This document shows positions 7,877 to 59,987 of a stretch of DNA of 64,000 bases, one piece after another. The stretch lies in assembly GCA_965203905.1 (NCBI GenBank), contig CBDBDQ010000005.1, positions 4,832,001-4,896,000 on the forward strand. The letters run 5' to 3'. Made by a program: the position numbers and the translations under genes. The notes beneath the pieces were generated by a model. The model was not told the DNA's origin. It saw only the letters and a program-made list of their open reading frames with translations, and did no database searches. Position 1 is the stretch's first letter; every line of letters begins with the position of its first letter. The stretch comes from Spirochaetia bacterium (GTDB taxonomy: Bacteria; Spirochaetota; Spirochaetia; SZUA-6; Bin103).

Positions 7877-8402
7877 TTGACAGACTGCGGCGGGCGGTGC
7901 ATGGTGATTCATTCCAAGGTTTCACTCGTGCCCACGATGCGTGACCATAGCACTCAGCGCTGCTACCAGTTGACGCAACCGGTGCCCCCCCCCCGGCAGC
8001 TTAAGTCTCGTAAATCTTTCAAACGTAAACAGTAGCACCAACCACACGGCTCTTTCGCCGGGCTCCGCCGCGGGCGCCGGCCGGCGCAGCCCGCTACCCG
8101 CCATCTCCAATCCCCCGGCGTTGCCGGACATGGGAACCAGCTACCGGCGAGCCGCCGCCACGCCCGAGGTCGGCGTGCGCCCGCGACCGTCCGGATCGCG
8201 AACGAGGGGGCCCGTGAAGAGGTAAATCCACGCCGCGGGCCGCGGCGGCGCCGTTGCCGCTGATCGCCCCGGGGGCAACTCGAAGTTGTCGCCCTCGTCG
8301 AAATCGCCTGCCCCGCAGAGGGTGCAGACCGGCACACAGGCCGCGGGAACAGGCGAGGGACCGGCACCGAATCGGATGTTCCCGAAACAGAGGAGATTCG
8401 TC
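7877..8402 (+). promoter_or_regulatory. Promoter and long (~490 nt) 5' leader of binding-protein gene 1, with poly-C uORF
   Basis: TTGACA(7877)-17-CATGGT; uORF 7937-8035 MRDHSTQRCYQLTQPVPPPRQLKSRKSFKRKQ with C10 at 7985-7994; motifs shared with 14779-15325. Confidence 0.55.
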
Positions 8403-10304
8403 ATGAGTCAGTACGGTCACACCGTGCCATGGAAGACGATGAAAACCGATACCCAAGCATCGCCCGGCGGGCGGCTTTTTCGGACCAGTCATGCATTACG
8501 AAACTGTAGACTATGGGTTGCGGTAATGATCGGGTTCGCGCTGGCCGCAACCGGCGCCTGGGCGTCGCCCGCCGGCGAGGAAGCGGCCGCTGCTGCGGAC
8601 AAGCCGATGGTGACCGACCCGACGACCGGAAAAATGGTCACCGCACCCGAGTACGGCGGCACGTTTACCTACGCGTACGCTTTGTTCGGTAAGAACACCG
8701 ACCCGTCGATCGAGGGGGGCTGGGCGGGCTTTCAGCTCTCCGGGGTCAACGAGAATCTCGTGCAGGGAGACTGGGGGCTGCCGCGGGACGAGTTCGGTTT
8801 CACCGGGAACTACGTGCCGACCTCGGTCTTCCGCGGTAACCTGGCCGCGAGTTGGGAGCAGCCGGACAACCGGACGTTCATCGTCCAGATCAAACCGGGC
8901 ATTCACTGGCACGACAAGGCGCCGATGAACGGGCGCGAGCTCACCGCCGACGACGTGGCGTGGGCCTACCGCCGCCATAGCGGCCTGCTCGACTTCAGGC
9001 CCGAGTACACCGCAACGCTCTTCGGGTTGCCGTGGGAGTCCATCGAGGCCCCCGACAAGTACACGGTCGTGTTCAAGCTCACCGAGCCGAGCCTCGGCAT
9101 GGTCCGTGCGATCCTGGCGGAGAACACCGCATGGGTGCTGCCTCGCGAGGTCATCGAACAGCACGGTGACTACACCGACTGGCGGAACGTAGTCGGCACC
9201 GGGCCGTTCATGCTGACCGAGCACGTCGAGGAAGTCTCGATGACCAGGACGCGTAATCCCAACTACCACGGCTTCGACGAGAAGTATCCGGACAACCGGC
9301 TGCCATACGTCGACGAGGTGAAGGCCCTGTTCATGGAAGAGGCGGCGACCCGCCTCGCCGCCATGCGCACCGGCCAGATCGACATGATTCACCGTTTCGG
9401 CGGCGGCACCACGATCGGTAAAGTCGAGGTGGTCAATGCGTTGCTGGGCACAAATCCCGACATCCAGGTGGGCACCTACTTCCAGCGTGCGCTGCAAGTG
9501 TCCGGTTTGAACATCCGTAAGCCGCCGTTCGACGACATCCGCGTGCGCCAGGCAATGCAGATGGCTCTCGACCGCGATGCGATCAACGACAGCTACTATG
9601 GCGGGTTCGCGCAACGGAAGCCTTCAGGCTATTTCGGAGACGCCAGTGGCCCCGTTTACACCCCATTCGAAGAGTGGCCACAGGAGCTCCAGGACGCATA
9701 CAGCTACAACCCGGAGGAGGCCGAGCAATTGCTCGACGAGGCCGGCTACCCGCGCGGCGCGGACGGGGTGCGCTTCGAGGTCACCTACGACTTCCGCAAC
9801 ATTGAAGTCATCGACCTGGGCTACGTCGAAATCGCAGCCGGCTACTGGAAGGAGATTGGCGTGGAGGTGGAGATCACCCTCCACGATACCGGCAGTTGGG
9901 TCCCTCGCCGCGTCGACGGGCTCTACGACATGACCACCGGCGATCAAGCCTGGGATCAGGACGTCAGCACGATTTTCGGCTGGTACGGCAATCTCGTGGA
10001 AGGACGGAAGAGTCATTTGACAGAGTATCTTGGCGGGGTTCCCGACCCCACCCTGATTCGGCTCTATCATGCGTTCAACGCCGCGACCGAAGAGTCGGAG
10101 CAGATACGAATTGCGAAAGAGTTCGACCTGTACGCCCTTTCTCAGCATTTTCAGGTATTCGGCTTCAAGTCGCCCCAATACCAGGTGGCCCAGCCATGGG
10201 TCAAGGGCTGGAACGGCGAGTCGTTCCTGCAGGACCAGGGCGATGTCCAGGTTTTTGCCCGGCTCTGGCTCGACCGCGACCTGAAGGCGGAAATGGGGTT
10301 CTGA
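8403..10304 (+). CDS. Family-5 (peptide/nickel) ABC substrate-binding protein
   Basis: Signal peptide, APEYGG, GRELTADDV, VGTGPF, PFDDIRVRQAMQMALDR; SD AGGAG before ATG 8403. Confidence 0.93.
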   Translation: MSQYGHTVPWKTMKTDTQASPGGRLFRTSHALRNCRLWVAVMIGFALAATGAWASPAGEEAAAAADKPMVTDPTTGKMVTAPEYGGTFTYAYALFGKNTDPSIEGGWAGFQLSGVNENLVQGDWGLPRDEFGFTGNYVPTSVFRGNLAASWEQPDNRTFIVQIKPGIHWHDKAPMNGRELTADDVAWAYRRHSGLLDFRPEYTATLFGLPWESIEAPDKYTVVFKLTEPSLGMVRAILAENTAWVLPREVIEQHGDYTDWRNVVGTGPFMLTEHVEEVSMTRTRNPNYHGFDEKYPDNRLPYVDEVKALFMEEAATRLAAMRTGQIDMIHRFGGGTTIGKVEVVNALLGTNPDIQVGTYFQRALQVSGLNIRKPPFDDIRVRQAMQMALDRDAINDSYYGGFAQRKPSGYFGDASGPVYTPFEEWPQELQDAYSYNPEEAEQLLDEAGYPRGADGVRFEVTYDFRNIEVIDLGYVEIAAGYWKEIGVEVEITLHDTGSWVPRRVDGLYDMTTGDQAWDQDVSTIFGWYGNLVEGRKSHLTEYLGGVPDPTLIRLYHAFNAATEESEQIRIAKEFDLYALSQHFQVFGFKSPQYQVAQPWVKGWNGESFLQDQGDVQVFARLWLDRDLKAEMGF

Positions 10305-12663: not shown

Positions 12664-13035
12664 TTGACGCAGGCCAATCACTGGAGTCACAATCCAGCCG
12701 GCACCATGAATGCCGGCTTCGACGCGCTCGAGCCAACTGGACATTGGGACGGGATAGATGGGACGATGGGATCCGCTATCGGTGGCGCCGGCTCGGTTCA
12801 TCGCCAACCGGCATGCGGACCGCCCACGCCCTTCCCGCCGACCACAACCGCGCCGGATCCCCGCCCGCAACTGACTGCCCGCAAAACCTACCGCCGGCGT
12901 TGCCGGTCAACCACGCTCGTGACTCCCTCAACCACGGGAGGTAAAGATGATACTGAAAGAACCGCACGCGCGCGCGGCGTGAGCCGGGGTGAACCCGCTG
13001 AGTCACACGCCGCGCGCTTCACAAATTGACTCAGA
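12664..13035 (+). promoter_or_regulatory. Orphaned copy of the binding-protein leader (promoter, conserved block, mini-ORF, hairpin), interrupted by the intron
   Basis: TTGACG(12664)-18-CACAAT; 12779-13035 aligns with 14960-15272. Confidence 0.7.
12947..12982 (+). CDS. Putative 11-aa leader peptide MILKEPHARAA
   Basis: SD GGGAGG at 12936-12941; paralog at 15181-15216; stop codon overlaps the end of the left arm of the 12-bp stem. Confidence 0.5.
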   Translation: MILKEPHARAA

Positions 13036-14681
13036 TCGCGCCAGGCCAAGCCTGGGAGGGGAGGAAGATGTGAAGTATGCATCAGAAACCTATCGTAGCC
13101 ACCCTGTGGGTAGCCAATCCCACCCGGTAGAGCGTAGCCGGCAGCCGGAAGCGAGTCTTGCGTTGGTCGGGGGCGACCCCGGGGACGAAGCGTAGACAGC
13201 GACCACAGAAGCCGTGTTATTGAGCCACGAAAGAATAATTGCTGGGGCCTTCGTCGTTCTGAGAGCGGGGGCAGCACCGACGTGCCGAAAACAACGGCTT
13301 GGCACGGAGGCCCGGCCGGGGTCGGAGAGCAGGGCAAATGTGGAGCGGGCGGCCCAGGAACCTGGGAGGTCTCGTTGTCTCCATGACGGGAGAGCCGGAG
13401 GGACGCCGGCGGACCAAAGTCCGGGCCTGTGCGGAGGAGCATCCGAGGAAGCACAGGAGCGAATAGACGGGTGCCGACATGGTATCGCCAAGCGAAGGCA
13501 ACGAAGCGCGGCGAGAAGGGCAGCGAGAAGTCTTAGCGCCCCCGTAGTACCGATGAAGTCGGGGAACGGTCGCCGCACCGGACCCGGCGGAGGGAAGGAG
13601 GGCGTCGAGTTGCAGAACCGTTGCGGGGAAACACGGAAGGTGCAATGGAATCTGGGAGCGTGTTAACGAAACAGCAGCGGATAGCAGAGAACGCGAGAAT
13701 CCATCCGGAAGTAGCGTTTACGTCGCTGGCGTATCATATGGATCTGGAGTGGCTGTACGAGGCCTACCGGCGCACCCGGAAGGACGGTGCAGTGGGCGTT
13801 GATGAACAGACCGCCGAGCAGTACGAGGAACACTTGGAGCAGAATCTGAGATTACTCCTGGAGCGCGCGAAGGCAGGTACGTATCGGGCACCGCCGGTGA
13901 GGCGGGTGCACATACCGAAGGGGACAAGCGGGGAAACCCGGCCCATCGGGATACCGACTTTCGAGGACAAGATACTCCAGCGGGCGGTGCAGATGCTGCT
14001 TGAGCCTCTGTACGAGCAGGACTTTTTGGACTGTTCGCATGGCTTTCGGCCCGAGCGATCGCCGCACACGGCGCTGGAGACACTCTGGAAACAGACGTTG
14101 CGGCAAGGGGGAGGATGGGTGATAGACCTGGACATACGCAAGTTCTTCGACACCCTGTCACACACCCACCTACGAACGATTCTCGGGCAGCGGATGCGGG
14201 ATGGAGTGGTTACGCGGCTTATTGGCAAGTGGCTGAAAGCCGGCGTCATGGAGAATGGCGCTGTCTCACACGCGGGGCAGGGTACGCCACAGGGCGGAGG
14301 GATATCTCCGCTACTGAGCAATATCTACCTGCACGAAGTACTCGACCAATGGTTCACCGGGGTAATGCAACGGCACCTGCGGGGACGGGCATTCCTGGTA
14401 CGATTTGCAGACGACGCGGTAATGGTATTCACCGATCGGCACGATGCCGAGCGGGTATTGAATGCACTGCCGAAGCGATTCGCAAAGTACGGGCTGACCG
14501 TTCACGAAGAGAAGACCGAGATGCTGCGGTTTGAGCCACCGGAAGGGGAAAGGGCGGGAGCACGACGGGAAAGTTTTCAGTTTCTGGGGTTCACCCACTA
14601 CTCGGGACGCTCGCGCAAGGGGAAATGGATCGTGCAGCGGAAGACCGCGAGCGACCGACTTACCCGAGCGCTACGCGCTGT
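13036..14681 (+). mobile_element. Group II intron, 3'-truncated (domains V/VI missing), bacterial class E-like
   Basis: Starts TCGCGCC where homology to the uninterrupted leader stops; ~585 nt ribozyme region; EBS1 TCTGAG (13258-13263) complementary to exon CTCAGA; no domain V found downstream of the RT. Confidence 0.88.
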
Positions 14682-14730
14682 ACAGTCAGCGCAGTGGCGG
14701 GTTGCCGGTGACCTTCGCTCACCCCGGTGA
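13621..14730 (+). pseudogene. ltrA: Group II intron reverse transcriptase/maturase, truncated in domain X
   Basis: GAVGVD, RVHIPK..RPIGIPTFEDK, DIRKFFD, GTPQGG.ISPLLSNIYLH, RFADD, FQFLGF; homology ends at KTASDRLTRALRAV. Confidence 0.9.
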
Positions 14731-14743
14731 CCCCCACGAGTCG

Positions 14744-15325
14744 TTGACGGCGCGCCGCGCCTATGCTAGCGTGCCTCACTTGGGGTTCGACGGATGCCGA
14801 TGAAGCGCCATGATAACAGTCAGCGCAGTAGCCGGTTGGCGGTGACGCAGCCGATGTACCCCCCCCTTACTTCTCGAACCGAGAAACAACTAACCGCTCG
14901 GGCTGATCGCCCCCTACGCGACCCCGCGCACGCCGTCGCCTTCACCACCGCCGTAGCTGTCGGTGGCACCGGCTCCGTCCATCGCCGAACCGGCATGCGG
15001 GGCGCCCCCACCCTTCCCGGCGGCGAGGGCAGCCGTCCCGGATCGCTGCCCGCGACTGACTGCCCGCAAAACCCACCGCCGGCGTTGCCGGCCATTCAGA
15101 CTCACTGCTGCTCAAACCACCGCCACGCGTGGCGTTGTAACGCAGATCCCGACGTAAATCTAGAGAAGAAGGAGGTTCGAATGACACTCAAAGAACCGCA
15201 CGCGCGCGCGGCGTGAGCCCGGGTGATCCCGGATGAGTCACACGCCGCGCGCTCTCAGGAAGTTGACTCAGACTTGCCGCCCGCGTTGGGCGGGCGCGAA
15301 AAGAGATCGACAACGGGAGTTGAAT
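14744..15325 (+). promoter_or_regulatory. Promoter and ~550-nt structured leader of binding-protein gene 2
   Basis: TTGACG(14744)-17-TAGCGT; uORF with C8 at 14859-14866; conserved block; mini-ORF and hairpins. Confidence 0.7.
15181..15216 (+). CDS. Putative 11-aa leader peptide MTLKEPHARAA
   Basis: SD AAGGAGG at 15169-15175; 10/11 aa identical to 12947-12982. Confidence 0.5.
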   Translation: MTLKEPHARAA

Positions 15326-17149
15326 ATGCAGATCGCAAAACTCACATGGACCTTCGCAGTAGCGTTGGTCCTGGTGCTGACCGCCACCGGCCTCTGGGCC
15401 ACTGGCACAGAAGAGCAGCCGACAGCCGCAGCTGCCGACAAGAGGAATGTCACCGACCCCGCCACCGGCCAGACGTGGACCGCGCCAGAGTATGGCGGGA
15501 CACTCACGCAGGGCGTTAGGGCCTTTCCCCCAAATAATAATAGTGACGGGTGGTCGGTTCATCCTGGCTGGGCGGCTCACCTCATCAGTGGCGTTAATGA
15601 GAAGCTAGCCTTCGTCGACTGGGGACAATCCAGGGATATATGGACAGGCACACAGCCTTGGACCGCCGAGATGTTTATAGGGAATCTGGCTGAAAGCTGG
15701 TCAACGCCCGACGACACAACGTTCATCTGGCACATCCGCCAGGGCGTTTACTGGGACAATAAGGCGCCGGTGAACGGTCGGGAGTTCGATGCCCATGACG
15801 TCGAATATAACTATCACCGCTATTTGGGTCTGGGCGATTTCACCGAAGACGGACCTAGCGCCCATCAGAGTGCTATAACTGCGTCTGGGAGAGCGGGTGT
15901 AGAGATCGAATCGGTAACAGCCACCGACAAATGGACGGTTGTTGTTAAGCTCAAGCCTCACGTCCTTGTGTTGCAGCATATGCTCAACAACTACTTGATG
16001 ATCTACGCCCCAGAGCAAATCGATGAATACGGCGACGCTAAGGATTGGAGGAACCTGGTCGGCACTGGTCCCTTCAGACTGACTGATGTCGTGGAGGGCA
16101 GCTCGGCAACCTGGGAGAAGAATCCTAACTACTGGGGCTACGACGAAAAATTCCCGGAGAACCGCTTGCCCTATATTGACAAGTTAAGGTCCTTGTTGCT
16201 ACCAGACGTGTCAGCACGTCTGGCAGCTATGCGTACGGGCAAGATTGATATGCTGAGCAACACCGGCGACGCCTATATACAATCTCTCGACGATGTAGAG
16301 AGCCTCCAGAAAACCAACCCTGAAATCGATGTGTGGCCCACTTATGCCTGGATAGCGGGCGCATTCCTTTTCAACCAGTCTCTGCCGCTCACTGCCGACG
16401 TCAATGTGCGCAAGGCACTGCAGATGTCAGTGGACCGCGAGACAATTTCCGCTACCTACTATAAGGGTTGGGGAGATCCAACACCTGGTGCGCTATTCAA
16501 TCAACGCTTTACAGGGTATTCCTGGCCAATGGAAAACTGGCCCGACGAGGTCAAGCGTGAGTATGAGTATCGACCGGATGACGCAGAAGCGTTGCTTGAT
16601 GCGGCCGGATATCCTCGCGGCGCCGACGGCTATAGGTTCAAGGTCAAGCTTGCCTATAACGAGGCGTTCGATTCGACCTATCCAGAAATCATCATGGGGT
16701 ACTTCGAAGCCATTGGCGTTGACAGCGAGCTTGTTATCCTGACTCGTGCTGAAGTAGGAGCTGCCCAAAGGGCGGACACGCACGAGTGGCACCTAGCGGA
16801 TGGGGGATGGATGGGCCTTACAACCCACTTTGGGATCGGGTCTGTAAGCCAAAACATTGATGGCTTCAGCTTCAACAAAGCGAAGGACCCGCGTATGGAG
16901 GCCCTGTATTATGCTGCCGAAGAGACTATGGACATTGAGGAGTATAAGAGTATTCAAAGACAGGCCGATGAGATCACTGTAAGGGAGCACTGGGGCCTAT
17001 CCAAACCCTTCTCCCCTATCGTTTTCGTGAGCCACCCGTGGGTCCAGGGCTATTTCGGTGAAGATTCTTTGGGAAGGGGTGAACGTAATACCTTCTTGGC
17101 CCGCCTCTGGATTGATAGTGAGCTGAAGGAAGCAATGACGGGAAATTAG
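15326..17149 (+). CDS. Family-5 ABC substrate-binding protein (paralog 2)
   Basis: Signal peptide MQIAKL..TGLWA, APEYGG, GREFDAHDV, VGTGPF, ARLWIDSELKEAM. Confidence 0.93.
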   Translation: MQIAKLTWTFAVALVLVLTATGLWATGTEEQPTAAAADKRNVTDPATGQTWTAPEYGGTLTQGVRAFPPNNNSDGWSVHPGWAAHLISGVNEKLAFVDWGQSRDIWTGTQPWTAEMFIGNLAESWSTPDDTTFIWHIRQGVYWDNKAPVNGREFDAHDVEYNYHRYLGLGDFTEDGPSAHQSAITASGRAGVEIESVTATDKWTVVVKLKPHVLVLQHMLNNYLMIYAPEQIDEYGDAKDWRNLVGTGPFRLTDVVEGSSATWEKNPNYWGYDEKFPENRLPYIDKLRSLLLPDVSARLAAMRTGKIDMLSNTGDAYIQSLDDVESLQKTNPEIDVWPTYAWIAGAFLFNQSLPLTADVNVRKALQMSVDRETISATYYKGWGDPTPGALFNQRFTGYSWPMENWPDEVKREYEYRPDDAEALLDAAGYPRGADGYRFKVKLAYNEAFDSTYPEIIMGYFEAIGVDSELVILTRAEVGAAQRADTHEWHLADGGWMGLTTHFGIGSVSQNIDGFSFNKAKDPRMEALYYAAEETMDIEEYKSIQRQADEITVREHWGLSKPFSPIVFVSHPWVQGYFGEDSLGRGERNTFLARLWIDSELKEAMTGN

Positions 17150-17163
17150 CAGTATACTCCTGT

Positions 17164-17205
17164 GGAGCTGGGTGGCGGTCGCTTGTGAGCGCGCTTCCCA
17201 GCTCC
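17164..17205 (+). terminator. Intergenic hairpin after the binding-protein gene
   Basis: GGAGCTGGG...CCCAGCTCC imperfect stem. Confidence 0.5.
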
Positions 17206-17225
17206 CATACTTGGGGCACTAACAC

Positions 17226-18230
17226 ATGAGAGCCTATCTCATCAGGCGGTTATTGCTCATAATCCCCACCCTGTTCATATTGACCATCATAGTCTTTGTT
17301 ACGGTCCGCTTTATCCCCGGCGATGTAATAGACACAATGGTGGCTGAGATGAATACTTTCCAACCAGGGACGATTGACCGTGAAGCTCTGGAGCGTCAGC
17401 TGGGACTAGACGTGCCTGTCTACGTGCAGTATGGACGCTGGATAGGAGTGTTGCCGACCCCTGATCGGATTACCGGTGAGCCCCACTTTAAAGGCCTCCT
17501 CCAGGGCACCTTTGGCGAATCACTGTTTGGCGCTGCTTTTGCGATAGAGGAGATCATAATCGGGAGATTGCCAGTAACCATTGAGCTTGGTGCTCTGTCA
17601 ATCGTAATTGGGCTCGTTATAGCCCTTCCCGTCGGCGTCTACTCGGCGATCCGCCAGGACACCGCCGCCGATTACGTAGGGCGCACCGCCGCCATCATCG
17701 GCTTGGCAACGCCGAACTTCTGGCTCGGAATCATGGTCATGCTCTACCCGGCAATCTGGTGGGGCTGGTCGCCGCCGATGGAGCTGATTCCCTTCAAGGA
17801 AGACCCGCTGGGGAATCTCGGGATGTTCCTCATTCCGGCCCTGATTCTGGGCACGGCCCTTGCTGCCAGCACCATGCGGATGACCCGCACCATGATGCTG
17901 GAGGTGCTCAGGCAGGACTATATCAGGACCGCCTGGTCGAAAGGGCTCAGGGAACGGGTAGTTGTCATGCGGCACGCCATCAAGAATGCCCTCATCCCGG
18001 TAGTTACCTTGGTCGGCCTGCAGCTCCCCCTCCTGGTAGGTGGCTCCGTTATCATGGAGCAAATATTCGCTCTGCCGGGGATAGGCCGTATGTTTGTGGA
18101 TGCGCTCGATAGCAGAGACTATCCGGTAGTCTCCGCCATAAACCTGGTTTTTGCTGCCGTGGTTTTGGGGATCAATCTCGTGATCGACCTGATTTATGCT
18201 TTCCTGGACCCCAGGGTTCGGTATCAATAA
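17226..18230 (+). CDS. Peptide/nickel ABC permease (DppB-like)
   Basis: Close paralog of 10387-11358. Confidence 0.95.
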   Translation: MRAYLIRRLLLIIPTLFILTIIVFVTVRFIPGDVIDTMVAEMNTFQPGTIDREALERQLGLDVPVYVQYGRWIGVLPTPDRITGEPHFKGLLQGTFGESLFGAAFAIEEIIIGRLPVTIELGALSIVIGLVIALPVGVYSAIRQDTAADYVGRTAAIIGLATPNFWLGIMVMLYPAIWWGWSPPMELIPFKEDPLGNLGMFLIPALILGTALAASTMRMTRTMMLEVLRQDYIRTAWSKGLRERVVVMRHAIKNALIPVVTLVGLQLPLLVGGSVIMEQIFALPGIGRMFVDALDSRDYPVVSAINLVFAAVVLGINLVIDLIYAFLDPRVRYQ

Positions 18231-18245
18231 AGGAAAACGGCGAGT

Positions 18246-19160
18246 ATGAGTGATAAACCATCAGCAGGAAGTGAGCCAAAGAAACGTGCCCGGCTGGCTG
18301 ACTTATTGATGAGGCTGATCAAGGAGAAGCCACTCGGTACGTTCTGCGGGATTGTCGTAGTGATACTGCTTTTCGTGGCCATCTTCGCCGATGCACTGGC
18401 GCCTTATTCCTATAAGGAAATGCACCTGATCGACAGGCTTAAGGGCCCGTCATCCCAGTATCTTCTGGGTACCGACCAGGTGGGACGGGACTTGCTCAGC
18501 CGCCTGATGATCGGGGCTCGTATCTCCGTATTTGTCGGCCTGGCCGCGACTGCGCTGAATGTCGTCGTCGCTGTCCTGGTCGGCGGCACTTCCGGATTCC
18601 TTGGGGGTAGATTGGATCTGGCGGTGCAGCGCTTTGTCGATGCCTGGATGGCGTTTCCGGGATTGCTGCTGTTGCTCACCATCATGTCCATTGTGGGAAG
18701 GGGTACCCTCCAGATCATCGTGGTCCTGGGGATCGCCGGAGGCATCAGCGGCTCGAGAGTCATGAGAAGCGCCGTGATCGGTATCAAGGAGAATGACTTT
18801 TTTGTGGCGGCTCAGGCCGTGGGCACCCCGACGAGCAAAATCCTGAGCCACCATGTCCTGCCCAATATCATGGCCCCGGTCATCATTGTCTTCTCGATCA
18901 ACATCGGAGGGGTGATCATGTCCTTGGCCGCTCTGGGCTTCCTCGGCTACGGTCTGCCACCCACCATTCCTGACTGGGGCGGCATGCTCAGCCGGGAAGG
19001 GCGCAGGTACATGGAGCAGGCCCCGTGGCTGGCGCTCTGGCCAGGGCTGTGCCTGACGATTGTGGTGTACAGTTTCAACATGTTGGGGGACGCCCTCAGG
19101 GACCTGCTCGATCCGCGGCTGCGGGGTGGCGCCGCGGGCAGCGGCGCCACGTCGGTTTGA
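18246..19160 (+). CDS. Peptide/nickel ABC permease (DppC-like)
   Basis: Close paralog of 11351-12418. Confidence 0.95.
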   Translation: MSDKPSAGSEPKKRARLADLLMRLIKEKPLGTFCGIVVVILLFVAIFADALAPYSYKEMHLIDRLKGPSSQYLLGTDQVGRDLLSRLMIGARISVFVGLAATALNVVVAVLVGGTSGFLGGRLDLAVQRFVDAWMAFPGLLLLLTIMSIVGRGTLQIIVVLGIAGGISGSRVMRSAVIGIKENDFFVAAQAVGTPTSKILSHHVLPNIMAPVIIVFSINIGGVIMSLAALGFLGYGLPPTIPDWGGMLSREGRRYMEQAPWLALWPGLCLTIVVYSFNMLGDALRDLLDPRLRGGAAGSGATSV

Positions 19161-19781: not shown

Positions 19782-19846
19782 AAGGCTGAGTATAGCCTTC
19801 CGCGCCACTCGACGTGAATGTCGTGCGTGTGTAAAAGCGCTAACCA

Positions 19847-20293
19847 CCGACAAGTACACGGTCGTGTTCAAGCTCACCGAGCCGCGCCTCGGCATGGTCC
19901 GTGAACCATGCGCACCGGCCAGATCGACATGATTCATCGTTTTGGCGGCGGCACCACGATCGGTAAAGTCGAGGTGGTCAAGGCGTTGCTGGGCACCAAT
20001 CCCGACATCCAGGTGGGCACCTGCTTCCAGCGTGCGCTGCAAGTGTCCGGTTTGAACATCCGTAAGCCGCCGTTCGATGACATCCGCTGCGCCAATTGCT
20101 CGACGAGGCCGGCTACCCGCGCGGCGCGGACGGGGTGCGCTTCAAGGTCACCTACGACTTCCGCCGTCGAGACCGCAGCCGGCTACTGGAAGGAGATCGG
20201 CGTGGAGGTGGAGATCACCCTCCACGATACCGGCAGCTGGGTCCCTCGCCGCGTCGACGGGCTCTACGACATGACTACCGGCGATCAAGCCTG
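19847..20293 (+). pseudogene. Deletion-collapsed, near-identical relic of binding-protein gene 1
   Basis: Four blocks matching ~9052-9108, 9361-9550, 9726-9797 and 9824-9952, joined in order. Confidence 0.92.
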
Positions 20294-20305
20294 ATAATGT
20301 GATCC

Positions 20306-55615: not shown

Positions 55616-57867
55616 GTGAAGAGGTACGGCAGGCAGATCTCGCTGAGCGGAAGGTGGAAGTTCCGCACCGACCCCGACGGCATGGGTGACCGGTATCCCG
55701 ACGACGCTGTCGCCGCCTACAAGGAGGACTGCAAGTTCTTCGATCCAGGCTACGACGACCGCGACTGGGGCGAGATCGCGGTGCCGGCGTGCTGGTAGGC
55801 AGAAGGGCACGATTACAACGGCGCCGCCTGGTATCGGCTGCGCTTCGACCACCGTCCCGGTGCGGAGGAGAACGTGGCGCGCCTGAGCTTCCTGGGGGTG
55901 GACTACTTCGCCGACGTGTGGCTGAACGGCTACTTCCTCGGTTCCCACGAGGGGTTCTTCAATCACTTCGAATTCGACGCCTCGCGCTGGATCAGGGCGG
56001 GAGAGACCTGTTGGTGGTGAAGGTGGACTCGCCCAATGACACCAACCTGAAGGTGCGCCCGATCGAGAAGACCATCGTCAAGGGCGCATTGGACGACTGG
56101 GACTGCAACGACCTGAACGTCAATCCCGGCGGCATTTTCGCCGATGTGCGCCTGCTGCTCAGCACCGACGTCTACCTGGCACGCGTGAAGGCCACCCCGC
56201 TCGTCGACCCGGCGAAGGGTAGCGCCCGCGTGTTGTGCCGGGTGGAGGCGGTCAACACCACCGACCGGTTCCTGCCCGTCAGTCTTGCCGCGCCTTGGCG
56301 CCGGCCAACTTCTCCGGCCGGGCGACACCCGCTATTGCCGGCGCCCGGTCCGTCGGAGCTGGATCTCTGGATCGACGTGGTCGAACCACGGCTGTGGTGG
56401 CCGTGGGACCTGGGCGAACAGAACCTCTATTCACTGGACCTGAGCATAACAAGGGGGAGCGCATCCTCGATCGGGTGACCGACCGCATCGGGTTGCGCCA
56501 GGTGCGCACCGAGCCGGGGTCGTCGGCGATCCACGTCAACGGTACGCGCGTGTTCTGCCGCGGTCCCAACTACGTCTCCGATCAACTGCAGTCCAACATG
56601 ACCCGCGACAAGTACCAGGCCGACGTGCGCCTGATGCGCGAGGCCAACATGAACATGGTGCGCGTCTACTGCGTGGTGGAGAAGGAGGAGTTCTACGACG
56701 CCTGCGACGAGCAGGGCATCCTGGTCTACCAGGACTTCCCGATGCAGGGCCGAATGAGCAACTCCAGCGACCTGGTGCGGAGGTCGGTGCCGCAGGCGCG
56801 CGACATTGGTCAATCAACTCTACAACCACCCGTCCATCGTGCTGTGGTGCTTCGGCGCCCAGCCGGGGCTCAAGAACTTCGAGAAGGTGGGCATGGCGAT
56901 GGCTGCGGCGGCGCGCCGCGAGGACCCCTACCGGTTCGTGCAGCAGGGCGCCAGCGTGTGGGAGTGGAAGCTGATCAAGGACAAGTACGACTGGCCGATC
57001 GACTACCACTTCTTCTGCGGCTGGTTCTCGCCCGAGTTCAAGCATGCGCCGTTCCACCCGCGGGAGGTGCTGGAGCTGCCGCCCGAGGAGTGCGCTTCCG
57101 GCGCCTCGGTGGAGGAGTTGAAGATCAAGCGCAAGGAGCTGCTGGAGTTCGTCAGTGAGTATGGGACCGCCGACTCGCTGCCGGCGCTGGAATCGCTACC
57201 CAAGTTCATTGCGAAGCAGGACCTGTGGCCCGTGAACTGGAAGATCTTCACGCGCCGCGGGCTGCACAGCGACCGCCTGCGCAAGTGGACCGGCGAGCCC
57301 GCCAGCCTGGAGCAGATGATCGCCGCCAGCCAGGACTACCAGGCGTTCGTGCTGAAGTATCACACCGAGTTCTTCCGCCGCCACAAGTTCGCCCCCTGCA
57401 ACGGCGCCCTGTACTTCCAGTTCCGCGACTGCTGGCCGGCGGTGACCGCCTCGGTAGTGGACTACTACGGCAAAAGGAAGAAGGGGTACTTCGCCCTGCA
57501 GCAGGCCTTCAACCCCATCCACGTGATGATGGACTGGCCCGACCTCGCCGGGGAGCCGGCCGGCGTCACCTTCCGGCGCGCGGTCTACGTGGTCAACGAT
57601 TACGCCACGGCGTACCCCACCCTGACCGTCACGTGGCAAGTGCTCGGCGCGGGAGACGAAGTGCTCGCCCGCAGCAGAATCGCCTGTACTGCGCCTGCCA
57701 ACAGCCTGCAGCAGATCGGCGAATTCTCGTGGGCCATCCCCGCCGCCGGCGGCAGCTACCGCGTGATGCTCGCACTCGAACGCGACGCCGGAACCTCTCT
57801 CCAGCAACAACTACCTGGTCGAGGCGTGCGCCGTATGACCCAGCCACACCCGCGTTTGAGCCCGTGA
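55616..57867 (+). pseudogene. GH2 beta-mannosidase-like pseudogene
   Basis: GH2 motifs spread over several frames (GVDYFADVWLNG, LWWPWDLGEQNLY, RGPNY, NHPSI, SEYG); TAG at 55796 and about five frameshifts. Confidence 0.9.
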
Positions 57868-59236: not shown

Positions 59237-59987
59237 CGGAGTACAAGCATACGCCGTTTCACCCGCGCGAGGTGCTGAGCTGCCGCCCGAGGAGTGCGCT
59301 TCCGGCGCCTCGGTGGAGGAGTTGAAGATCAAGCGCAAGGAGCTGCCGGAGTTCGTCAGCGAGTATGGGACCGCGGACTCGCTGCCGGAGCTGGACTCGC
59401 TGCGCAGATTCATCGCCGAGCAGGATCTGTGGCCCGTGAACTGGAAGGTCTTCACCCGGCGCGGGCTGCACAGCGACCGCCTGTGCAAGTGGACCGGCGA
59501 GCCCGCCAGCCTGGAGCAGATGATCGCCGCCAGCCAGGACTACCAGCCGTTCGTGCTGAAGTACCACACCGAGTTTTCCGCCGCCACAAGTTCGCCCCCT
59601 GCAACGGCGCCCTGTTCTTCCAGTTCCGCGACTGCTGGCCGGCGGTGACCGCCTCGGTAGTGGATTACTACGGCCGAAAGAAGAAGGGCTACTTCGCCCT
59701 GCAACAGGCCTTCAGCCCGATCCACGTGTTGATGGACGGGCCCGACCTCGCCGGTGAAGCGGCGGGCAGCACCTTTCGCCGCGCCCTTTACGTCATCAAC
59801 AACTACCCCACCGAGTACCCCTCCCTGACCGTCTCGTGGCAGGTGCTCGGCGCGGCAGACGACGTGCTCGCCGCCGGCAGCACTCCGTGTACGGTTCCGG
59901 CCAACAGCCTGAGCCCGGTTGGCGAGGTCTCCTGGCCCATCCCCTCTGCCGACGCCAGTTGCCGCGTATCGCTCACCTCGAACGCCG
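59237..59987 (+). pseudogene. Second, diverged copy of the GH2 3' region
   Basis: Colinear with ~57031-57790; many synonymous changes and two single-base deletions. Confidence 0.92.

Follow-up and report, generated by a model that had tools for sequence, protein, structure and literature searches.

A multi-copy leader combining a mini-open reading frame with two pseudoknot-like domains precedes ABC importer genes in one genus of Spirochaetia

What is the repeated leader that precedes ATP-binding cassette (ABC) importer genes in a spirochaetal genome, and does a ribosome on its very short open reading frame (ORF) control the genes behind it? The question arose from 64,000 nucleotides of Spirochaetia bacterium DNA (GenBank assembly GCA_965203905.1, contig CBDBDQ010000005.1, positions 4,832,001 to 4,896,000 of the forward strand; here, the window), in which the original prediction, made from the letters alone, had noticed two copies of a leader with an 11-codon mini-ORF and a switchable structure. 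Our analysis of the copies in this genome and in its relatives makes it very probable that the element is a real, selected leader of the importer cassette with a translated mini-ORF. Whether it also acts as a ribosome-dependent cis regulator in the manner of our best explanation, whose pause, remodelling, output and signal we infer, is an evenly balanced matter.

The two window copies, at 12779-13035 and 14960-15272, proved to be diverged versions of one sequence (80% mean column identity in alignment, with one extra 49-nt insertion in copy 2), and both were also recovered as repeat families D15 and D20 in a repeat search of the window. The positions originally assigned to their stems and mini-ORFs were correct. 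The 12-bp stem P1, GCGCGCGGCGTG / CACGCCGCGCGC, is perfect in both copies. The mini-ORF was said to drift synonymously, which describes a CTG/CTC difference between the copies; an additional ATA/ACA difference (Ile/Thr) is non-synonymous. The parts of the two copies and the genes behind copy 2 are as follows.

12779..12935, plus strand: copy 1 upstream block, an optional 5' module common to copy 2 and about 8-20 other loci (alignment with copy 2)
12894-12906, plus strand: copy 1 hairpin CCGGC-GTT-GCCGG, inside the copy 1 upstream block
12936-12941, plus strand: copy 1 Shine-Dalgarno (SD) sequence GGGAGG (sequence)
ATG 12947 to TGA 12982, plus strand: copy 1 mini-ORF, MILKEPHARAA and stop (sequence; family-wide coding signature)
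12970-12981 / 13006-13017, plus strand: arms of copy 1 P1, perfect 12 bp
about 12985-12997, plus strand: copy 1 inner hairpin, in domain 1
12999-13005 / 13027-13033, plus strand: copy 1 second pairing P2, TGAGTCA / TGACTCA (sequence; family pair counts)
14960..15169, plus strand: copy 2 upstream block, an optional 5' module (alignment with copy 1; blastn)
15079-15091, plus strand: copy 2 hairpin CCGGC-GTT-GCCGG, inside the copy 2 upstream block
15170-15175, plus strand: copy 2 SD AGGAGG (sequence)
ATG 15181 to TGA 15216, plus strand: copy 2 mini-ORF, MTLKEPHARAA and stop (sequence; family-wide coding signature)
15204-15215 / 15241-15252, plus strand: arms of copy 2 P1, perfect 12 bp
15219-15232, plus strand: copy 2 inner hairpin, in domain 1
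15234-15240 / 15264-15270, plus strand: copy 2 P2, TGAGTCA / TGACTCA, interleaved with P1 in H-type pseudoknot topology
15278..15296, plus strand: copy 2 hairpin Pb, CGCCCGC / GCGGGCG, with P3, P4 and Pd absent 3' of it (alignments)
15315-15319 and 15326-15328, plus strand: second SD GGGAG and ATG of the binding-protein gene (sequence)
15326-17149, plus strand: SBP_bac_5 binding protein, 607 aa, first gene of the cassette behind copy 2 (Pfam)
17226-18230 and 18246-19160, plus strand: two permeases of the same cassette, which spans 15326..19160 (Pfam)

The hairpin motif CCGGCGTTGCCGG occurs at 8115, 12894 and 15079, a total of three matches that was reached in 3 of 100 shuffles (mean 0.58). It had been reported in a further leader near 8114, and the motif is there, at 8115; the covariance model described below has no match near it, and beyond the motif itself the region holds no copy of the element.

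The family can be described by a covariance model built from genome-wide copies, as had been proposed. Our model (R1; 194 positions, from the 29 copies of alignment A2) gives an element of about 195 nt and finds 33 copies in this genome and hundreds in congeners. By blastn, this genome holds about 30 copies of the mini-ORF module and 21 matches (about 20 copies) to the 5' module, and most genome copies run on for about 90 nt that the window copies lack. All but two of the 33 copies found by R1 (31/33) run up to the start codon of an SBP_bac_5 gene; the two orphans, both truncated, are copy 1 of the window and a fragment at 6.652 Mb of the genome. Among 100 relatives, R1 matched eight of ten other genomes of the same genus, none of 13 genomes of the sister genus and none of 77 others. 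At E<=1e-15 there are 43 copies in congener G001, 61 in G004, 81 in G005 and 34 in G006, and full-length copies number 5 in G007, 2 in G008 and 1 in G003.

A scan for the exact mini-ORF/P1 pattern across one genome per species, about 185,000 species, returned five records only, all from metagenome-assembled genomes (MAGs), and the sequencing runs that hold leader sequence are sponge metagenomes and metatranscriptomes. Upstream of 27 further binding-protein loci in other MAGs (closest 53-71% identity), R1 found no match and the leader differs. Rfam 15 at the gathering threshold matches only a group II intron in the window, and at E<=1 it matches only introns, plus one chance snoRNA match below threshold, in 20 other leader loci; the initial impression that this is no recognised riboswitch therefore stands. 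A literature search, with supplements outside its scope, found no description of such a leader and no mention of the peptide string.

Some of the binding-protein homologues in other MAGs have a leader of another kind. At L069, L071, L073, L076 and L079 (positions 300-640), where the homologues are 56-71% identical, one or two repeats resemble the gene's own SD, start and first ~20 codons and are followed by hairpins. Public MAGs of the genus itself bear inconsistent labels ('Spirochaetia bacterium', 'bacterium' and, on one 4-kb contig, 'Acidobacteriota bacterium'), and the Rho protein has its best relatives under the label Spirochaetota. Outside the genus, some of the closest homologues of the binding protein come from MAGs labelled Dehalococcoidia, a hint of either mislabelling or gene exchange among sponge symbionts.

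Codon, pairing and linker counts were made on alignment A4, which contains 100 copies from eight genomes in 97 distinct rows. The mini-ORF consensus, MILKEPHARAA, has 11 codons without a run of regulatory codons and is matched exactly in 39 of the 97 rows. At the start position, ATG appears in 76 rows, GTG in 9 and TTG in 3 (88 of NTG type), with CTG in 3, GTA in 3, AGG in 2 and one gap; when the rows are placed on a tree, this codon's first base changed at least 13 times, the T once and the G twice. Fitch changes at codon positions 1/2/3 were 2/2/5 for Leu, 0/1/5 for Lys, 0/3/16 for Glu and 1/0/7 for Pro, so that 33 of 42 events in codons 3-6 (L-K-E-P) fall at third positions vs 9 at first and second positions together (binomial P = 2.4e-9). 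Variant codons are synonymous in 41 cases and non-synonymous in 12. Codons 2 and 7 vary at all positions, and codons 8-11 and the stop, which lie within P1, are constrained at all positions. This clear coding signature, evolutionary in nature, which answers the question of peptide conservation raised by the original prediction, argues that the mini-ORF is translated and that L-K-E-P is selected at the amino-acid level.

We proposed the helices of the leader by eye and then counted them on A4; RNAalifold alone predicted only P1 and Pb. Overall, 91.3% of 4814 cells are paired (87-97% for individual helices), and 21 of 50 pairs have changes on both sides, the double changes occurring in few sequences. 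All five pairing measures exceed those of 500 of 500 shuffles, and when the partner is slid by 1-3 columns only 25-52% of cells pair. Domain 1 is built on P1, the G+C-rich 12-bp stem noticed in both window copies, which is conserved family-wide at 97% paired; the last four codons and the UGA stop make its 5' arm, with the stop at the top. Loop 1 measures 6-8, 16-19 or 39 nt, and owing to these inserts, of which the two longer classes fold as hairpins, the two arms of P1 lie between about 13 and 46 nt apart. The second pairing of the window copies is likewise conserved, with a few compensatory changes, as P2 (GAGUCA/UGACUC; core of 5 bp, 87% paired, double changes at four pairs). Its 5' arm directly adjoins the P1 3' arm, and linker L3 before its 3' arm is 9-12 nt long in 86 of 97 rows. 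The original prediction had offered a pseudoknot as an alternative to attenuation; the topology and tight linker fit an H-type pseudoknot in which P1 and P2 would coexist.

A second domain follows after a P2-P3 joint of 2 nt in 97 of 97 rows. Its order is P3 (CUGGC/GCCAG, 5 bp), then hairpin Pb, P4 (GAGAGUA/UACUCUC, 7 bp), hairpin Pd, CGCAA and the P4 3' arm. The P4 5' arm abuts the P3 3' arm, and the helices interleave in the same order as in domain 1. From the end of P4 to the end of the binding-protein AUG there are 27-28 nt in 89 of 97 rows. The unpaired CGCAA and the loop GCAAU are conserved, and sequence conservation exceeds the needs of pairing alone; one other family copy lacks Pb. Across all helices G-U pairs outnumber A-C mismatches by 176:78, and the ratios for Pb (80:10), Pd (38:16) and P3 (16:4) point to pairing of these three helices in sense-strand RNA. 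Both domains appear, at the level of sequence, to share an H-type pseudoknot topology with no bases between helices and with fixed linker lengths. We do not claim a start-codon hairpin (P5), which pairs in 55% of cells of the MAFFT alignment and lies where the model-fitted alignment is unreliable.

The proposed tie to an ABC cassette held for every gene-linked copy in the genome: all 31 stand at an SBP_bac_5 gene with a permease gene downstream, and 29 of the 31 have both permeases, in the same order of binding protein, permease and permease as behind copy 2. Among the 100 copies from eight genomes, 92 passed a strict test (a signal-peptide motif and an open frame right after the leader), and 6 further copies were judged by eye to precede a binding-protein-type N terminus. 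In total, 100 of 100 copies examined in the eight genomes were counted as lying just upstream of, and co-oriented with, the start of such a gene. With position and orientation fixed and with two truncated copies as the only orphans in this genome, the leader is not a freely dispersed repeat of the repetitive extragenic palindrome or miniature inverted-repeat transposable element kind, which the original prediction had named as a possible refutation.

The genome contains about 116 loci like the window binding protein, about 48 of them in its close subfamily, and 29 of the ~116 are joined to a leader detected by blastn; two leader-bearing binding proteins are only 27-29% identical to that of the window. 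For the 27 of 30 loci whose gene is intact, leaders share a mean pairwise identity of 0.73; in the mature binding protein the corresponding values are 0.48 (codon position 3), 0.59 (positions 1+2) and 0.43 (amino acids). Between most cassettes the permeases are 60-76% identical, compared with about 43% for binding proteins. For 64 of 87 copies the closest leader relative is found in a different genome, so homogenisation or concerted evolution within a genome does not explain the conservation of the leader. Leader and gene have the same nearest-neighbour partner in 17 of 87 copies, a comparison that sampled only part of each genome's copies. Judged by these sequence comparisons, the leader is under selection and was kept while the genes behind it diverged. 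Beyond the leader, SBP_bac_5 importer cassettes are extremely expanded in these bacteria, as the number of such loci here and the 81 leader-bearing copies within 4.9 Mb in G005 illustrate.

Both window copies are atypical of this family, copy 1 being a truncated orphan and copy 2 lacking the second domain. Copy 1 ends after TGACTCAGA (about 13035) and is followed by a group II intron, with no binding-protein gene behind it; cut short in this way, it controls nothing now. R1 scores it at 96 bits (window 12935-13083, genome 4844935-4845083). Copy 2 has domain 1 and Pb without the roughly 50-nt P3/P4/Pd part that alignments find in most family members, and scores 127.5 bits vs 170-219 for complete copies. 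The second structured domain, the truncation of copy 1 by an intron and the deletion in copy 2 had escaped the original prediction.

RNA-library contigs from the sponge metatranscriptomes of three studies match the leader module at 15137-15270, and some continue into P2/P3 of paralogous copies. These matches lend weak support to transcription of the leader; strand and ends cannot be read from contigs, and some DNA may have been carried over. A step in RNA-contig depth near 14682 was considered as a transcription start and set aside, as it coincides with the start of a multi-copy module, and a contig gap at 15271-15337 proves nothing, this stretch being specific to copy 2.

How might such a leader act? 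In our best explanation, it would form the 5' part of the mRNA for a binding-protein/permease/permease ABC importer and be reused on 30-80 paralogous cassettes per genome within one genus of uncultured, sponge-associated Spirochaetota-like bacteria, with its strong SD driving translation of the 11-codon mini-ORF. Counted from the sequence, P1 begins 23 nt after the A of the mini-ORF AUG, and the mRNA entry site of a ribosome lies about 11-13 nt downstream of the P-site codon. The leader ribosome would thus meet the base of P1 at its entry site with Glu5 occupying the P site and Pro6 the A site, a step that would place the selected L-K-E-P residues at the peptidyl-transferase centre just when the ribosome meets the pseudoknot. 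It would have to melt P1 to reach the stop codon, and each passage or pause of a leader ribosome would dismantle domain 1 and, via the fixed 2-nt joint, perturb domain 2. The length or frequency of a programmed pause could then set the share of downstream message that gets translated, finished or retained, amounting to ribosome-sensed attenuation without an intrinsic terminator. A fuller version, which as a whole we consider unlikely, is a new kind of ribosome-arrest sensor in which nascent L-K-E-P and the 12-bp pseudoknot together pause the ribosome at the Glu-Pro step on a cellular or host signal and co-regulate 30-80 ABC importers via the stacked second domain, possibly itself an aptamer for a ligand or factor.

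Folding bears on which outputs such a leader could have. P1 is far stronger than P2. Of 95 RNAs folded to minimum energy, 2 include P2 when free and 30 once the stretch under the ribosome is masked, and the second SD lies >100 nt downstream of P1. A simple P1/P2 alternative-hairpin switch acting on the binding-protein ribosome-binding site is unsupported by these folds, and the same numbers do not bear out the earlier idea that a ribosome opening stem 1 favours pairing 2. Inspection of the family consensus by eye showed no run of U after any of P1, Pb and P4. CsrA-type control was considered, as the start hairpin CAUACGGAGUUACGUAUG resembles a CsrA site, and rejected: the genome is 98.7% complete, and a search of it found no CsrA gene. 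A programmed frameshift or N-terminal extension was likewise rejected: no slippery heptamer lies upstream of P1, and the other frames have no conserved product. By eye, about 8 of 30 copies have an upstream ORF that shares the frame of the binding protein, which is near the chance expectation of one in three. The genome has a gene for Rho, whose match scores 700 bits and exceeds the cut-off. With no intrinsic terminator, no simple sequestration of the ribosome-binding site, Rho present and CsrA absent, the output could lie in termination that depends on Rho, in an effect of the tertiary fold on initiation, or in the stability or decay of the mRNA at the binding-protein start.

Several observations weigh against a translated, ribosome-dependent regulator of this design. 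The plus strand of 14600-15400 has no terminator-like site, and the classical leader-peptide attenuation originally suggested, which needs one, fails there. The G+C-rich, structured leader has no evident C-rich unstructured stretch for Rho loading, by eye only. In folding models, which leave out pseudoknots, the predicted unpaired probability of the second SD is 0.63 in free RNA vs 0.65 with the ribosome-covered stretch masked (96 copies), and the helices of domain 2 are unchanged by the masking. The mini-ORF has GTA, CTG or AGG at its start position in 8 of 97 rows and is missing entirely from one, and in about one row in five its frame is shifted, shortened or lengthened, with frameshifts or early stops in several rows. 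Covariation is thin, P1 being almost invariant, with double changes at three pairs in a handful of sequences, and P3 having no double change; G-U and A-C counts are about equal in P1 (14:15), P2 (21:23) and P4 (7:10) and hence uninformative on strand. The binding-protein gene of copy 2 is intact despite the loss of domain 2, which may therefore be dispensable. Finally, all copies are close relatives from one genus, and the statistics overstate their independence.

These observations give room to other readings. A tentative possibility is a tandem device, in which domain 2 is the aptamer of an undescribed riboswitch or the site of a trans-acting protein or RNA that co-regulates one regulon, and the mini-ORF with domain 1 supplies a second, ribosome-dependent input. 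Domain 2 looks the part, with its H-type topology, its conserved helices and unpaired CGCAA and GCAAU, a G-U excess that argues for RNA pairing in Pb, Pd and P3, and conservation beyond the needs of pairing, as expected of a recognised surface. Against this reading, the obvious candidate factor CsrA is not encoded in the 98.7%-complete genome, P3 shows no compensatory change, the family has no Rfam match, and domain 2 is absent from copy 2, whose gene is intact, as Pb is from another copy.

It is rather improbable, in our estimate, that the leader is a constitutive expression or stability module, in which the SD, the leader ribosome and stable 5' structures protect the mRNA of a highly expressed binding-protein operon against ribonucleases or keep the start open with no sensing at all. 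In Bacillus, 5' stabilisers are formed by a ribosome-binding site or by a stalled leader ribosome. Such a module would suit a second ribosome-binding site that is equally accessible in modelling with or without a leader ribosome, a message without a terminator, and a copy 2 gene that is open without domain 2. It would also suit structure that ends a fixed 27-28 nt away, just outside the expected ribosome-binding window of the binding-protein gene, and one leader serving 30-80 cassettes whose binding proteins differ (about 43% identity) fits generic use over a ligand-specific sensor. A pure stabiliser, on the other hand, needs neither the selected amino-acid identity of L-K-E-P, nor two elaborate pseudoknot-like domains with fixed joints, nor stem sequences that are near-invariant.

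A DNA-level or non-functional repeat (a promoter or operator, a recombination substrate or a mobile repeat, with mini-ORF and stems incidental) is very unlikely: P1 is a nearly invariant perfect inverted repeat, the balanced G-U and A-C counts of P1, P2 and P4 give no RNA-specific signal there, the upstream blocks are mosaic and modular, and group II introns lie in or beside several copies, but three-base periodicity and the 41:12 synonymous ratio cannot arise at the DNA level, the P1 arm distance varies through folding inserts, unlike in a protein operator, position and orientation to the gene are fixed in the copies examined, and the nearest relatives of 64 of 87 leaders are in other genomes.

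Between and upstream of the leader copies, the window holds three further features.

13036..14681, plus strand: group II intron remnant replacing the rest of leader 1 (Rfam RF02005 131 bits, RVT_1, blastn)
14682..14959, plus strand: multi-copy upstream module of binding-protein loci (blastn; upstream regions compared by eye)
14724-14729, plus strand: TTGACG box, candidate promoter only (conserved among upstream regions, by eye)

The stretch 13036-14681 is a group II intron with ribozyme domains D1-D4 and an intron-encoded reverse transcriptase, its end coordinates being approximate. Domains D1-D4 match at 13114-13331 (RF02005, 131 bits), and the reverse-transcriptase ORF (13621-14730; RVT_1 only, in Pfam) is cut off at 14682 by the start of the multi-copy module. 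By blastn, 13036-14681 is unique in the genome at the nucleotide level, and sequence is multi-copy from 14682 on. Rfam at the gathering threshold gave no domain V/VI match, which together with an ORF that ends at the repeat boundary indicates that the intron is truncated. Another group II intron, on the strand opposite to the adjoining leader copies, is found at L005:1669-1882, L011:1244-1463 and L014:1686-1905. Its D1-D4 match stops exactly 37 nt upstream of the leader at these loci, beside a small GCCGG...CCGGC hairpin that resembles a terminator on the intron strand, and these introns may target that adjoining hairpin. On the minus strand of the window, at 15078-15092, a small hairpin GCCGGCAACGCCGGC followed by GGTGGGTTTT looks like a terminator that would act on antisense transcripts.

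Upstream of the cassettes, optional multi-copy modules form mosaics, and at other loci some of these modules are tandemly duplicated. A conserved TTGAC(A/G) box with GGGGTTCGACGGATGCCGATGAAGCGCC-like sequence after it precedes the mini-ORF by 75 to about 450 nt, depending on the copy. A promoter scan of 14600-15400 returned 0 sites, and the box at 14724 is a lead, not a finding. Downstream of the second cassette, window 19844-20294 repeats pieces of the first binding-protein gene (8286-10304) from 9049-9952 at 96-99% identity (D6, D9, D10, D19), which looks like a recent partial duplication or pseudogene. A 600-nt direct repeat, 57073-57672 vs 59277-59875 (88-94% identity, 2.2-kb spacing; D1, D2), is unrelated to the leader.

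If our best explanation is true, a single short device of RNA and peptide controls a very large part of these symbionts' capacity for nutrient uptake, and a class of mini-ORF-dependent bacterial leader absent from Rfam is added to those known. Its hundreds of natural variants would allow study of a nascent peptide and an mRNA pseudoknot acting together on the ribosome, and it would give a handle on the signal by which sponge symbionts choose what to import from among host-derived compounds. Were it no more than a plain expression module, it would still be a compact, portable 5' leader kept intact while genes diverged to about 43% identity.

Among known systems, the leader-peptide attenuators of trp, his, thr and leu resemble this leader in having an SD-led short ORF whose 3' end overlaps a strong stem, the ribosome deciding the structure. 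Unlike them, it lacks a regulatory codon run, a terminator hairpin followed by a U-tract and a match among Rfam leaders, and its conserved L-K-E-P is not a cognate repeat. Ribosome-stalling leaders are represented by the translational attenuation of ermC/cat and by tnaC with Rho. The likeness to these lies in a very short, amino-acid-selected peptide with a UGA stop beside an RNA structure, and in a genome that encodes Rho; the differences are a downstream ribosome-binding site >100 nt from P1 and unsequestered in models, the lack of an evident inducer or Rho loading site, and a stalling step that here is only conjectured. The mgtA and mgtCBR leaders of Salmonella combine a riboswitch with proline-codon mini-ORFs, and they too place a short translated Pro-containing ORF and an elaborate structured RNA upstream of a transporter gene. 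The present leader is unrelated to them in sequence and fold, has a single Pro codon, and serves 30-80 paralogous cassettes in one genus only.

Frameshift signals of the type of the coronavirus infectious bronchitis virus are long-stem H-type pseudoknots that pause ribosomes. Domain 1 is like them in its dimensions, with a stem 1 of 12 G+C-rich pairs, a stem 2 of 5-7, no loop between the two and a ~10-nt loop spanning stem 1, and in sitting where an elongating ribosome must unwind it; it is unlike them in having no slippery heptamer before P1 and no conserved product in the other frames. Upstream ORFs in bacteria that act by translational coupling or by occlusion of a ribosome-binding site are described in a Sinorhizobium meliloti survey (PMC13285730). 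As presented there, they share with our leader an upstream ribosome-binding site and a short ORF in a bacterial mRNA leader, and they are single-locus, whereas the leader described here is multi-copy and conserved in sequence, with two pseudoknot-like domains. The leader thus lacks what defines the classical families, namely a terminator, a regulatory codon run, a ribosome-binding site within a leader hairpin and an Rfam match. In kind it belongs with the known leader-peptide and upstream-ORF-dependent attenuators; what is new is a genus-specific, highly multi-copy leader that joins a peptide-selected mini-ORF to two pseudoknot-like domains.

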